The notes under the pieces are model-generated. The model was not told the origin of the DNA. It saw only the letters and a list, made by a program, of their open reading frames with translations, and searched no databases. From the IMG/VR virus record IMGVR_UViG_2706796243_000001: DNA of 64,000 nucleotides. One strand, 5' to 3'. Source of the stretch: a virus. Lineage: Duplodnaviria > Heunggongvirae > Uroviricota > Caudoviricetes. A program made the position numbers and the translations under genes. This document shows, in pieces, positions 3,276 through 61,914 of the stretch (positions within the stretch are counted from its first letter, which is position 1; each line of letters starts with the position of its first letter).

Positions 3276-3282
3276 ACTAACA

Positions 3283-3302
3283 AGCCGGGGACGCGCCCCG
3301 GC
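3283..3302 (+). repeat. PeSL stem-loop GCCGGGG-ACGC-CCCCGGC
   Basis: Perfect GC-rich inverted repeat in the 5' leader of the next ORF. Confidence 0.7.
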
Positions 3303-6295: not shown

Positions 6296-6302
6296 ACGAA
6301 AG

Positions 6303-6327
6303 GCCGGGATAATTCCCGGCTTTTTCT
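6303..6327 (+). terminator. rho-independent terminator (GGCCGGGA-TAAT-TCCCGGC + TTTTTCT)
   Basis: GC hairpin of the PeSL hairpin family followed by a T-run. Confidence 0.7.
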
Positions 6328-6560
6328 ATGCAGAAAAGTGAATTTAAGGAGATCTCCGCGAGGTGATGCACTTGCCAGGGTCAAGCCTGGAAGCGCTTAG
6401 AAAGCGTTTTAGAGCGTTTTGCAGGGTATGACATAACCCCGCCACGCTCAAAGGCCCTTAAATTTAGTAACGCAGTGAAACTATCTGCATAATTGTCGCT
6501 ATTCATGCAAAATCGCTGCATATGAGAACAATTCTCAACAAAAATAATTTAAAATAGTGC

Positions 6561-9458: not shown

Positions 9459-9941
9459 ATGATCATGAAATATGAAATAACCCCGGAAGATATGAAAGGG
9501 CGCGGCCTGGATAGCGCACGATACACCCTTACAAAGCGTGAAAATCTGCAACTGTTTTCTATCTGCTTTATTCATCCGGACGATCCTGATTTTCAATCCG
9601 ATCCTGTAGAGTTCTGGGCTAGTGGCTGGGACACCGCCTACAGTGAATTGATGGACAATGTAACCACGTTTGAATCTTTCGGCCTGTCAAGTTTTAGCGA
9701 GACGGATCGCCCCCTGGAATGTGAGCAGGTGAGAGCGTGGATCAATCACTACAACACCCTTGATCACCTGGTCTTTATCTTCGGGGAGACAAAAGAAGAG
9801 ATGATTAGAAAAGCGCTTGACTTTAACGATCATTGTGCTTATGTGCTTCGCAAAATGTGCGAAATGGTGGACGCATTGAGGAAGGCGGAAAGTTTCGACG
9901 GCGGATCGGTTTACAGTCAATCAATGCACCGTTACCGATAA
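9459..9941 (+). CDS. hypothetical protein (160 aa)
   Basis: ORF with normal amino-acid composition. Confidence 0.5.
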   Translation: MIMKYEITPEDMKGRGLDSARYTLTKRENLQLFSICFIHPDDPDFQSDPVEFWASGWDTAYSELMDNVTTFESFGLSSFSETDRPLECEQVRAWINHYNTLDHLVFIFGETKEEMIRKALDFNDHCAYVLRKMCEMVDALRKAESFDGGSVYSQSMHRYR

Positions 9942-9974
9942 GGCCAAAATCTTTACAAAACCAGGGCTTGCTTT

Positions 9975-10172
9975 ATGGCTGTTTTGTCAAGTGTTTTTTA
10001 TGGCTGGATTGCCTGCCTTGTACTCAGTGACGCAACGGCCCAGACAGTTAACACCATGATCGACGGCTTGCAATTGGCGTTTTATTGTGTGGTGAAATAT
10101 CACAGATTTAAACGGTTCGACCGTTATGATCTACCGTTCATCATTGCCGGATCACTGGCTATCATGTTGTAA
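9975..10172 (+). CDS. hypothetical membrane protein (65 aa)
   Basis: Two hydrophobic segments; followed by a terminator. Confidence 0.4.
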   Translation: MAVLSSVFYGWIACLVLSDATAQTVNTMIDGLQLAFYCVVKYHRFKRFDRYDLPFIIAGSLAIML

Positions 10173-10176
10173 GTAA

Positions 10177-10200
10177 GGCCGGGAATTGTCCCGGCTTTTG
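10177..10200 (+). terminator. rho-independent terminator (GGCCGGGAAT-TG-TCCCGGC + TTTTG)
   Basis: Hairpin of the PeSL family plus a T-run, closing the plus-strand early block. Confidence 0.65.
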
Positions 10201-12322
10201 CATATCACACAAACACCCCAAACACAACACCAAATCTTTACCCGCTTTTATGTTGGTTGCAATATCGCAACTGAGAATTATTCTCACCAACCCCGTTGGC
10301 AATTATGCAAAAAAGTGAATTTAAAGAGATCCCAGGAAAGGAATATAACGGCAAGGCTAACGAGAAAACACGCTCAAAACTCGTTATATTGCGTTTAAAA
10401 GGGTATTGCTTATCGCCTTTGACCCACTAACACCCCAAAATTGATAACGCATGTTATCAACTGAATAAAACACGCATTTTTAAGCGTTTCATGTGAATAC
10501 GTGATAATAACTCTCATTTGATAACTTTTCTCATCTAAGCCATTGTGTGAACTGTCTTTTTTGAGCATAAAAATAAAATCTTGTCAAATAAAATAATCGT
10601 TCGCGTGATCGTGGTGAGTGGCGCGAGCGTAGCGAGCGACACTATAACACGAGAGTAACTCAAATGATAATACTTATCATTTTCGTTCGCGTTATCGTGG
10701 CTCGTAGACGCTACGATATAATCACATACGTGATTAAGCAACGGCTAATCATTTACATTATTATTCATTTACAATGAATAGTTACACAATGAAATTATCA
10801 CACTCGCCACGATAACACCGATCAACTAACGTTGATCGCTCTCGTGTTATAGTGTCCAGATAAAGGGGATTCACAAAACCCCTTTGGTCAATCTGGACAT
10901 TGTTTTCCGTGGCGAAAACAACCCGTAAGGGCTTTGTGTTATAGTGTCGCGAGGTGATGAAAGTCAAGATCTTTTTATTAGCAATAAATCGCCGTTAATG
11001 GTTGACAAACCATGATTAATCGATCTGTAAATCAGGCCGCTGGCCTGCTGAAAGGCTTGTTTTTGAGCATAAAAGATGCCTCAAGTGTCAAGCTTTTTCT
11101 TGATAGGAAAAGTCTATTAATCCCTTGTGTAGCAATACAGAAAATAGTTACAATAAGTAACTATTTCAATGCTTTAGCATTGCCGGGTATCCGGTCCATC
11201 ACAGGGCTAAACGAGAATTGTTATCATGTGGCAAAATGCTCAAAAGCAGAGTATTGCTAAAAACAATTTTCCCTCCCTGTCAAGTGTTTTGTGCGAAATT
11301 TACAAAATATTTTTATTTGCGGAATGATTTTCATTTAGAAATTGAAATGAAAATCGAAATTATAATGATTATGAAAAGCATTATCATCTACAAAACACCC
11401 CACAAAATGAATAATAACAGGTGTAAACTGTCACAGTGGTAACATATAGCAGGCTAATCATCGTCATAGTAATGGTTCATTGATGCAATGGTAACATAGT
11501 GCAACTATCACCCATGCAACAGTCCGATCTGTGGTGCGTATAACGTGTATTATGTTAAATAGACCAACCCACACAAAAGTAAGCAAGTCAAGGGCAAATC
11601 GTGCTGTAAGCTGGCTAATCAATCAAATCATCATAGTTTCATTAGGCAATCATTAGTCACACAAGTAATCATCATGCAATCATCGTGCCAAAAACTCGCA
11701 AGGGTCTCGACATCGGACCACTCAGATATTTTGTAAAGATCCTTGACAACCTTCGGGGGCTGTGATTGTCCGTCTAGCACATCAGACATAGAGCCAACGG
11801 ATATTTTTCGTCCCCAAGAGATACAAGACAGGGCCTCTTTTATTTCCCTCCGGGCGGGGGAGGGGTGGGTTTTGATATGTTTACCCGTATACGGGTTAGC
11901 CTGTGGCTAATCGCCCTGCGATATGTTTACAGCATCGACACTTCAGGCTACATGTGTCGAAGAAATGCAATTCCTTAAACATGTTGTGTTGCAGAGCAAT
12001 GAACGAGTTCACCCGTGCAACGGGCATTGTGTGTTAATGAAATGTACAACCTTTCACGCAGGAGCGGTGGTACAGTTCAACAATCAGGACATCCAACGTC
12101 CGTAAAGATTGTTGAATGAGAATTATTCAATTCTCAGGTGCAAGGCACCCTTGGTGTTTGTTTCGTGCAGACCTTCAGCACCTGTGACTCTTTAGGTAAT
12201 AGTAGCAGGGCTGACAGTTTACGTCAAGAGGAAATTGATGTGCCTCTTTAGACAAAATTGATGGGACTCTTCAGGCAGGAATAGAGGAGCCACTTCAGGC
12301 TCCCCTTGTGTGGTGGGTCACT

Positions 12323-12703
12323 TCAGGTAAAGATCAATTTAAAGACGAGAATGAGAACAAGTGCTACAAGAGCGTATATTCCCCGCATTACTAATTGATG
12401 TGTGGGACTGGGATCTATGGGGATAATCATCATCTTTTGTACACTGTTGGTGATAACATTCCCTTGATCATCTAACCACTCTCTTACACTTTTCCTTCTC
12501 TCTTCTTCCAACCATTTTGTGTGGGCCTTATGCTCCTCTATAATTTTCTTTGCGTTTTCCAGGGAGTGGTATGGGTTTCCTGCAATCATATCGAAGTTGT
12601 CTCTTACGCTGGGCGTAAAGTGGCGCAGTGGTTCACCTTTGTAGAAAACTTCCCACGATTCTAGTCCATATTCCCTTTTGTGGAGGATCTTGTAATCACT
12701 CAT
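12323..12703 (-). CDS. hypothetical tail-anchored membrane protein (126 aa; start trimmed to ATG 12703)
   Basis: GAGGTG RBS before MSDYKIL...; C-terminal TM helix. The N-terminal extension in the track looks non-coding. Confidence 0.45.
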   Translation of the reverse strand: MSDYKILHKREYGLESWEVFYKGEPLRHFTPSVRDNFDMIAGNPYHSLENAKKIIEEHKAHTKWLEEERRKSVREWLDDQGNVITNSVQKMMIIPIDPSPTHQLVMRGIYALVALVLILVFKLIFT

Positions 12704-12893
12704 GCTGCACCTCAGAACGGGTTCAGAAGGACACATGCTGCGAAGTTGCAGAGCGCAAGGAGTTGAGAGGGAAGCATCCACCAGCGCTTCCCTTCTGGGA
12801 ACATCTGCACAAGACCTCTGCATCCGACAAGTTCGAAGACCACATTGACAGATACCAGAAGCCATAAGGCCCAGAGTATTGCGAACAGGGCTG

Positions 12894-13121
12894 TCATATT
12901 GTGTACTCCACGTTGATCTGGGACAGTTGTACCTCTTCCGATTGAGGAATGGCTACAAATTTAGATGTTCTCAGATTGAATGCAGTGACAAATCCACGGA
13001 AATCACCCATAGTTGATTCACCAACAATATGCGGCTGACCACAGTAAATGAATCCATCCCCTATGTCGAGAGAACGTGCAGCCACACAGGTTTTATTCTT
13101 TTCAGTGACGGTTACTTTCAT
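12894..13121 (-). CDS. hypothetical protein (75 aa)
   Basis: Tightly packed minus-strand ORF. Confidence 0.4.
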   Translation of the reverse strand: MKVTVTEKNKTCVAARSLDIGDGFIYCGQPHIVGESTMGDFRGFVTAFNLRTSKFVAIPQSEEVQLSQINVEYTI

Positions 13122-61069: not shown

Positions 61070-61146
61070 GGTTCTGTAGCTTAGTTGGTTAGAGCGCTTC
61101 CCTCATAAGGAAGAGGTCGCAGGTTCAATTCCTGCCAGAACTACCA
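61070..61146 (+). tRNA. tRNA-Met (anticodon CAU; could also be an Ile lysidine type), CCA encoded
   Basis: Cloverleaf: acceptor GGTTCTG/CAGAACT, D-arm AGCTTAGTTGGTTAGAGC, anticodon arm CTTCC-CTCATAA-GGAAG, T-arm GCAGG-TTCAATT-CCTGC. Confidence 0.8.
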
Positions 61147-61838: not shown

Positions 61839-61914
61839 GGGGTATTAACACAGCGGTTAGTGTAGCGGCCTCTTAAGCCGAAGGTCGAAGGTTCGAATCC
61901 TTCATGCCCCACCA
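61839..61914 (+). tRNA. tRNA, probable Lys (anticodon CUU), CCA encoded
   Basis: Acceptor GGGGTAT/ATGCCCC (one G-U pair), D-stem ACAC/GTGT, anticodon loop CTCTTAA (one mismatch in the stem), T-arm GAAGG-TTCGAAT-CCTTC. Confidence 0.6.

Follow-up and report, generated by a model that had tools for sequence, protein, structure and literature searches.

A gene-free interval between convergent gene blocks of Salmonella phage SSE121 as the probable genome terminus, with a homolog of direct terminal repeats and a conserved structured element

We analyzed a 64,000-nucleotide (nt) stretch of phage DNA (IMG/VR record IMGVR_UViG_2706796243_000001; hereafter, the window), which is 100% identical to Salmonella phage SSE121 (JX181824; Seunavirus, Vequintavirinae; window position = SSE121 record position - 83745). 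Between its convergent plus and minus strand gene blocks lies an interval free of open reading frames (ORFs), 10173-12322; the last credible + strand gene stops at 10172, and the first - strand gene ends at 12323. With a probability of roughly 85%, we assign this interval as the concatemer junction, or genome terminus, of a phage whose virions receive unit-length DNA bearing short direct terminal repeats (DTRs). Just as probably, the deposited SSE121 record is a circular permutation; because it would have been opened elsewhere, the real chromosome ends are predicted to lie inside the interval. A model that had read the letters alone (the sequence-only reading) offered for this interval small RNA genes, a packaging or replication signal, or the remnant of a deleted element such as a miniature inverted-repeat transposable element (MITE). 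Its packaging option was essentially right, in that the interval holds a homolog of the terminal repeat at which virion DNA ends are cut. Its premise of a T4-like genome failed, because taxonomy puts the record in Seunavirus, Vequintavirinae; by this classification SSE121 is an rV5/PVP-SE1-like myovirus. The features on which the assignment depends are as follows.

11260-11774, unstranded: predicted DTR of 515 bp (record positions 95005-95519), from collinear homology to demonstrated DTRs.
11255-11264, unstranded: left cut-site motif TGCTA↓AAAAC (arrow, cut), with the predicted cut at 11259/11260; aligns with the left end of HdK5.
11767-11780, unstranded: right cut-site motif TGTCCGTC↓TAGCAC, with the predicted cut at 11774/11775.
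11299-11310, unstranded: left arm TTTACAAAATAT of a DTR-internal inverted repeat, 12 bp and perfect, 39 nt from the left cut.
11726-11737, unstranded: right arm ATATTTTGTAAA of the same inverted repeat, 37 nt from the right cut.
11534-11560, unstranded: DTR core motif GTGCGTATAACGTGTATTATGTTAAAT, conserved out to Vequintavirus.

The assignment is carried by demonstrated ends in two related genera, the sister genus Mydovirus and the more distant Vequintavirus. In the Mydovirus KPP-1, a 514-bp DTR was placed at 116,316-116,829 by twofold read coverage and PhageTerm, which classed the packaging as T7-type (PMC9862379). Both record ends of phage DP, also a Mydovirus, are identical over 514 nt and annotated as repeat_region. 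KPP-1 and DP share both DTR boundaries, starting with AACAC(A/G)ATTCTC and ending with GCTGTCCGTC, and the last DTR nucleotide is also where one of the KP12 record ends lies. These three independent lines give a 514-bp Mydovirus DTR, which maps collinearly onto window positions 11260-11774. In Vequintavirus, HdK5 carries an exact 459-nt repeat at both record ends, consistent with the redundancy of 458 bp given by Korf et al. (PMC6563267); a repeat of 459 bp is known from Gotham (PMC7471380), and five further sampled Vequintavirus records match the query at the record coordinates of HdK5.

The DTR homolog is 514-517 nt long in all Seunavirus and Mydovirus relatives examined, even at 78% identity, unlike its flanks, which are rich in indels. 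Alignment to related phages, proposed by the sequence-only reading as a search for conserved non-coding blocks, revealed two of them: the DTR and 10376-10856. In about 16 of the 60 sampled rV5-like records, no more than 2.5-5 kb separates a record end from the anchor gene beside the junction, and the rV5 map shows an unexplained 'non-coding' box at the same convergent junction (Kropinski et al. 2013, PMC3606486). The DTR sequence is present as one copy in the deposited SSE121 record; in virion DNA, we infer a copy at both ends.

The sequences at the predicted cuts were strongly conserved. The left motif, TG(C/T)TA↓AA(A/C)AC, is nearly invariant across 16 genomes. At the right cut, where the alignment reads TGTCCGTC↓TA(A/G)CAC, TGTCCGTC is invariant in 16/16 genomes and occurs once in the window; DP, KPP-1 and KP12 all terminate exactly at this site. 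The HdK5 cuts, written in SSE121 orientation as ...ATTATGTCA↓GACAAGTTTTTCTCC...TGTCAAGTG and ...TTTCGTCCGCC↓TGGCAGCAC, align with 11259/11260 and 11774/11775, and HdK5 reads GTCCGCC↓TGGCAGCAC at the aligned right cut. The 12-bp inverted-repeat motifs occupy the same DTR positions in DP and KPP-1 (40-51 and 466-477) and are kept in 15 of the 16 genomes. They are unlikely to have arisen by chance, because only about 0.008 perfect 12-nt inverted repeats are expected in 515 nt by a rough calculation. The core motif, GTGCG.ATAA.G.GTATTATGTTAAAT, lies at offset 275 of 515 in SSE121 and 264 of 459 in HdK5. About 150-230 nt upstream of it, the DTR region of the Vequintavirus isim (reverse complement) holds five tandem 15-nt units, GTGTAAACAGTCAAG; SSE121 has only scattered copies of GGTAACAT and GTAAAC at 11420-11505. 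The GTGTAAACAGTCAAG-type units are candidate iterons or terminase-binding sites.

Several points weigh against placing the genome ends here. Among the Seunavirus records, none has two DTR copies and none ends at the predicted boundary, and a literature search found no published termini for Seunavirus. Four independent assemblies (SalP219, SEW_6S and the IMG/VR contigs L024 and L030) break within 10683-10948, in or beside a structured element (described below), not at the DTR; we attribute these breaks to assembler overlaps, hypervariability and inverted repeats, and a physical discontinuity is possible. An IMG/VR scan with the invariant DTR motif returned seven loci, with no contig end at the predicted boundary and two ends inside the structured element. 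The SSE121 DTR is a homology-based assignment, and the true cuts may lie a few nucleotides away. Finally, the ligand of the DTR-internal repeats and the role of the structured element are proposals, the latter drawn by analogy with T7.

Some record ends in this region were set aside as evidence for termini. The start and end of the SalP219 and SEW_6S records overlap by 127 nt and 91 nt, respectively, which are assembler circularization overlaps rather than physical termini. The isim and ESCO13 records were likewise rejected as direct information on termini: they were opened in the homologous non-coding region, and the repeat is duplicated in neither. The 91-nt end overlap of SEW_6S equals, to within 1 nt, a 92-nt unit bounded by GTGTTATAGTGTC (10858-10948 versus 10857-10948). 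Candidate causes of the assembly breaks are heteroplasmy, tandem-copy ambiguity, hairpin artefacts and physical discontinuity.

The second conserved block, 10376-10856, is 83-95% identical to Mydovirus, compared with 40-59% matched in the flanking gene (unaligned positions counted as mismatches). Much of it forms a structured element with the following parts and repeats.

10599-10856, unstranded: conserved structured element of roughly 260 nt, about 400 nt upstream of the DTR.
10599-10637: 5' GC hairpin of the element.
10638-10656 with 10838-10856: 19-bp outer helix, which is the inverted repeat of the sequence-only reading.
10663-10681: hairpin.
10691-10701 with 10806-10816: 11-bp inner helix, enclosing a hypervariable core.
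10819-10838: hairpin.
10597-10614 and 10683-10700, + strand: two copies of an 18-nt direct repeat, TCGTTCGCGT(G/T)ATCGTGG, nearly unchanged in 16/16 genomes.
10806-10816: partial inverted copy of the 18-mer, GCCACGATAAC.

RNAalifold recovered the nested structure unaided. Covariation was tested on 10 distinct sequences, with slid partners and 500 shuffles as controls. Paired cells amounted to 99.5% in the element versus 21-52% in the slid controls, both-sided changes were found at 9 pairs versus 0-2, and none of the 500 shuffles reached the observed covariation. The pairing is clearly beyond chance. Double changes numbered 23, against a single one-sided change of the G:U type, so that variation runs almost wholly from one Watson-Crick pair to another, and whole stems were swapped with pairing kept, as from AAATGATAAT..TTATCATTT to AATGCGA..TCGCATT. 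The inner 11-bp helix, which overlaps the repeated 18-mer, never varies, and variation of the direct repeat is limited to two or three positions of its first copy among the 16 genomes. The two strands fold equally well (fold z of -9.7 for the + strand and -8.0 for the - strand). In the Vequintavirus phages isim and HdK5, a counterpart (fold z of -9.3) lies about 200 nt upstream of the Vequintavirus DTR, with the same architecture and an almost wholly different 18-bp helix, GACATAATATAAAAGCAG / CTGCTTTTATATTATGTC. As judged from these comparisons, the element is kept by compensatory substitutions, that is, by selection for pairing.

We consider it most likely that the element works as DNA, through a hairpin or cruciform combined with protein-binding repeats, and that it serves to process concatemers or prime replication; this is the weakest step of our interpretation, and it is taken by analogy. 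We lean toward it because both strands fold, variation is confined to Watson-Crick pairs, the invariant inner helix coincides with the 18-mer, and no conserved promoter or terminator was found. Candidates for a sigma-70 promoter, or for an intrinsic terminator, that would delimit the element were weak or not conserved. The annotated promoters of this phage are near-consensus, unlike the weak sites around the element. TATAAC within the inverted-repeat arm was rejected as a -10 element, being AATAAC in most genera and accompanied by no conserved -35.

The same observations bear on whether the element, and possibly more of the interval, is a structured non-coding RNA gene, for example a regulatory RNA or a replication pre-primer. 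Such a gene would be compatible with the DTR, and we regard it as rather unlikely. Its nested multi-helix structure has covariation support, stems are replaced with pairing kept, and loops carry hairpin-bearing insertions reminiscent of RNA expansion segments; moreover, the upstream operon is terminated earlier, at 10177-10199, so that the element would be an independent unit. However, covariation-supported pairing would be just as expected if the element worked as a hairpin or cruciform of DNA. The equal folding of both strands and the Watson-Crick-only variation fit pairing on both DNA strands, and an invariant 11-bp helix that coincides with a repeated 18-mer is more like a set of protein-binding sites. 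The Rfam scan suggested by the sequence-only reading, run with Rfam 15 over 9500-13000, gave no matches at E <= 1, and ARAGORN found no tRNA or tmRNA within the interval. The small RNA genes proposed there have thus gained a covariation-supported structure but neither an Rfam family nor a conserved promoter or terminator, on DNA whose two strands fold equally. No Vequintavirinae transcriptome was found in the literature.

On a more tentative note, the element may represent a new class of cis-acting element (DNA hairpin/cruciform or non-coding RNA) needed for terminal-repeat duplication or concatemer processing in rV5-like myoviruses, and so a non-T7 answer to the duplication of genome ends. 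This somewhat doubtful idea is based on the architecture shared from Seunavirus and Mydovirus to Vequintavirus with the helix sequences replaced, and on the position 200-400 nt upstream of the DTR.

Next to the element lies a small variable unit that bears on the MITE proposal.

10857-10935 and 10936-10950, unstranded: 79-nt hairpin-bearing insertion followed by a third inverted-repeat arm, bounded by 13-nt direct repeats, GTGTTATAGTGTC.

The inverted-repeat triple that had been listed was borne out: 10638-10655 pairs perfectly with 10839-10856 over 18 nt, and 10636-10650 with 10936-10950 over 15 nt. A MITE-like mobile element or a deletion scar would account for two perfect 18-nt inverted-repeat arms separated by 183 nt and a further copy of the arm, for a 79-nt piece bounded by 13-nt direct repeats that is present or absent among relatives, and for related small hairpin modules (AACCCGTAAACGGGC) at differing positions in SalP219, Mydo and LNA4. 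The insertion unit is missing from most relatives; alignments skip from 10856 to 10936 in EspYZU14, KE22, KE23, LNA4, GAP31, 4MG and SalP219. However, the arm sequence occurs in the 64-kb window solely at 10638, 10844 and 10936, and this one locus is syntenic in all genomes examined. The arms co-vary, which indicates selection for pairing, and the element is conserved better than the neighboring genes. There is no target-site duplication: the flanks GCGAGC↓...↓CAGATA (arrows, element boundaries) differ, and in relatives the flanking bases lengthen the helix. Accordingly, we rejected a mobile element or deletion scar as the source of the repeats and hold it to be extremely improbable. Hairpin modules of the form AACCCGT(A)AA(C)GGGC are found at varied sites of the element, namely within the loop of a hairpin, inside the variable core and beyond the 3' arm (SalP219 L009, Mydo L017, LNA4 L013 and window 10915-10930).

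That the interval is a long non-coding stretch between convergent blocks, as the earlier reading had it, was upheld by codon periodicity, by family searches and by PVP-SE1, in which a corresponding gap of 2.2 kb is likewise unannotated. In comparison with 15 relatives, mismatches in the flanking gene 9975-10172 were strongly periodic at third positions (p = 3e-12), whereas 10221-12110 showed no codon periodicity; in the DTR, the largest phase share was 0.37-0.41 versus 0.49-0.72 in flanking genes, which is not coding-like. The eight longest ORFs of the interval had no matches in Pfam or PHROGs, whereas the control, 9975-10169, matched phrog_17242 with E = 8e-34. Relatives do carry many annotated ORFs of 30-120 amino acids (aa) here (13 in GEC_vB_MG; a 120-aa ORF in EspYZU14), and 12111-12380 has a weak mismatch 3-periodicity (p = 1e-4), as might be expected of missed small protein genes or of decayed pseudogenes intact in relatives. 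However, annotations across the interval comprise tiny ORFs only, inconsistent in strand and frame between genomes; the signal at 12111-12380 overlaps repeat units of 23-24 nt; and the most conserved stretches change by paired compensation, not at third positions. The absence of periodicity, the lack of family matches and the paired compensatory variation led us to reject small genes and pseudogenes, which we consider very unlikely. Nor did any of the relatives have intact genes across the interval, a pattern that the sequence-only reading had connected with pseudogenization or sequencing error.

Some observations concern coding and annotation at this locus. The flanking ORF 9975-10172 (+ strand) is a genuine 65-aa gene, unannotated in the SSE121 GenBank record and homologous to PVP-SE1 gp180. 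The frame of the periodicity at 12111-12380 differs from that of the downstream - strand gene, and similar blocks occur in spacers of the - strand operon (GAP31, DP and others). In EspYZU08 (MW882934.1), a 'ligase' label is placed over this non-coding DNA. SEW_6S (PQ002171.1) is filed under Demerecviridae, yet where the two align at this locus, its identity to SSE121 is about 87-97%.

Returning to the concatemer junction, we propose the following sequence of events, with T7 as the model. Replication would yield concatemers in which genomes are joined head to tail through a single DTR copy. Terminase would recognize sequences in or next to the DTR, candidates being the iteron-like repeats and the symmetric 12-bp inverted repeats that lie about 38 nt inward of each cut, and would cut at TGCTA↓AAAAC and TGTCCGTC↓TAGCAC. 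The DTR would then be duplicated by strand-displacement or hairpin-primed synthesis, giving a copy at both ends of each packaged genome. At the right genome end, 10173-11259 (1.09 kb) would form a unique, non-coding arm that bears the terminator of the operon, an operator-like palindrome and the structured element, the last of which may serve repeat processing or prime replication; at the left genome end, 11775-12322 (0.55 kb) would be the non-coding arm, bearing a hairpin and CTTCAGG repeats.

Some of these features would also suit a replication origin in or comprising the interval, with the 18-mers and GTAAC-type repeats as iterons, AT-rich 11290-11420 as unwinding element and the hairpins as priming signals. 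G+C dips to 0.32-0.37 at 10300-10600 and 11050-11650, whereas the flanks have about 0.45; conservation extends to direct and inverted repeats; the DTR region of isim contains the five tandem 15-nt units, which are GTAAACAGTC-like; and the non-coding DNA here is conserved better than the neighboring genes. On the other hand, the window has no site-specific skew inflection, and skew changes in rV5 follow transcription direction only (PMC3606486). No linked initiator gene and no DnaA-box-like array were seen, and terminase recognition and processing explain all these features equally. An origin, which would not exclude a terminus at the same place, seems to us a somewhat improbable addition.

The two arms of the proposed terminus carry further features.

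10177-10199, + strand: intrinsic terminator GGCCGGG-AATTGT-CCCGGC followed by TTTT, closing the + strand gene block.
10272-10286, unstranded: perfect 15-bp palindrome TGAGAATTATTCTCA, operator-like and recurring in intergenic spacers.
10441-10460, unstranded: hairpin TTGATAAC-GCAT-GTTATCAA, with compensatory G:C to A:T changes in relatives (TTAATAAC...GTTATTAA; 16 genomes).
11843-11865, + strand: terminator-like, G+C-rich hairpin CCCTCC-GGGCG-GGGGAGGG with a trailing T-run, just inside the predicted left genome end.
11941-12327, unstranded: dispersed CTTCAGG copies (11941, 12269, 12293 and 12321) plus degenerate units of 23-24 nt at 12227-12300, all on the left-end side of the DTR.

In PVP-SE1, a rho-independent terminator is annotated at the site corresponding to 10177-10199 (3279-3300 of locus L002). 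At 6299-6354 the terminator recurs almost identically, and a 28-nt block common to both sites comes after it; the spacers 6299-6354 and 10175-10331 have in common the terminator and the block ATGCA(G/A)AAAGTGAATTTAA(G/A)GAGATC, 93% identical, as a recurring intergenic module. With its terminator, 28-nt block and palindrome TGAGAATTATTCTCA, 10175-10331 repeats the module of the ordinary spacer 6299-6540. Allowing up to 2 mismatches, the palindrome TGAGAATNATTCTCA has four sites (2062-2076, 6523-6537, 10272-10286 and 10502-10516) versus 0.38 expected, and none of 100 shuffles reached four; its enrichment is clearly beyond chance. It may be an operator for a regulator, and it is two bases off the Fur 7-1-7 consensus. 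A different candidate, TGATAATACTTATCA, was rejected as a Fur box, because its stem is swapped compensatorily in relatives (AAACGATA...TATCGTTT, AATGCGA...TCGCATT), as befits a hairpin and not a fixed operator. On the left-end side, isim has an equivalent hairpin, CCTCTCC...GGGGAGGGG, and CTCTTCAGG repeats at the same relative position as the CTTCAGG repeats.

The individual repeats reported for the interval mostly survived with corrections. The hairpins at 10441-10460 and, for AAAGGGG...CCCCTTT, at 10862-10885 are present as described. The direct repeats exist, although they start at 10597 and 10683 rather than at 10598 and 10686, and the perfect palindrome is CGATCAAC-TAAC-GTTGATCG, with an 8-4-8 layout at 10819-10838 instead of 8-3-8. 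A supposed 60-bp homology to 2054-2115 shrinks to a palindrome-containing 20-nt core (19/20, E = 0.03) and a 13-nt block, with the remainder unshared. Four CTTCAGG copies had been put within 12170-12330, where three exact copies lie; the fourth, at 11941, is outside. The two occurrences of TTTTGAGCATAAAA are not beyond chance by count alone. Elsewhere in the window, + strand genes for tRNA-Met (CAT; 61070-61146) and tRNA-Lys (CTT; 61839-61914) are as expected for this phage group.

Short DTRs (328-514 bp) are already known in this group of phages, and the placement of the SSE121 and PVP-SE1 termini adds another case. By contrast, the structured element and the symmetric DTR-internal sites, which are not mentioned in the literature searched, appear undescribed, and the element has no Rfam family. 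If the placement is true, the deposited SSE121 and PVP-SE1 genomes were opened arbitrarily and lack one of the two repeat copies; virion DNA would exceed the record by about 515 bp and end at record positions 95005 and 95519, and the interval would account for the unexplained 'non-coding' box of rV5-like genomes. This matters for annotation (spurious ORFs and the 'ligase' label in relatives), for engineering or rebooting of phages that are candidates for therapy, and for the reading of assemblies that break here. Two cut-site motifs, the paired 12-bp sites and a covariation-supported element are supplied as precise, testable cis elements. They may offer a handle on how large myoviruses with short exact terminal repeats recognize, cut and duplicate their ends, a process understood mainly from T7.

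Among known systems, the closest are the short DTRs of Vequintavirinae and rV5-like phages: 514 bp in KPP-1 and DP, 458-459 bp in HdK5, EdH4 and Gotham, 328 bp in Schickermooser and 342 bp in BME3. The predicted SSE121 DTR shares with them homologous sequence, the same synteny at the convergent junction, aligned cuts, the core motif, non-coding character and similar length. Against the Mydovirus DTR, its first 362 nt reach only about 70% identity, and alignment of the final 150 nt is local, confined to the surroundings of the cut site. The termini of SSE121, PVP-SE1 and Seunavirus are placed here by homology.

Likeness to the T7 concatemer junction, drawn by analogy, comprises a short non-coding DTR, a repeat that needs duplication and secondary structure next to the repeat. 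Short-repeat arrays lie just inside each terminal repeat of T7 and are reminiscent of the CTTCAGG repeats. Unlike the 160-bp repeat of T7, with which it has no sequence homology, the SSE121 repeat is three times longer, and its element is a large multi-hairpin domain at 200-400 nt from the repeat with a putative role; SSE121 is a myovirus and is not known to have a phage RNA polymerase. For T7 itself, PMC4281155, citing Chung & Hinkle 1990 and Molineux 2006, describes a terminal repeat that must be duplicated during processing, with a hairpin intermediate and the involvement of DNA secondary structure beside the repeat. With the structured non-coding RNAs of phages in Rfam, the element shares a multi-helix architecture supported by covariation; it differs from them in having no Rfam match or defined transcript and in folding symmetrically on both strands. 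The 'non-coding' box of rV5 lies at the same convergent junction of two gene blocks and was drawn without ORFs; the rV5 paper gave it no function (PMC3606486), whereas here it is tied to a DTR homolog and a structured element.

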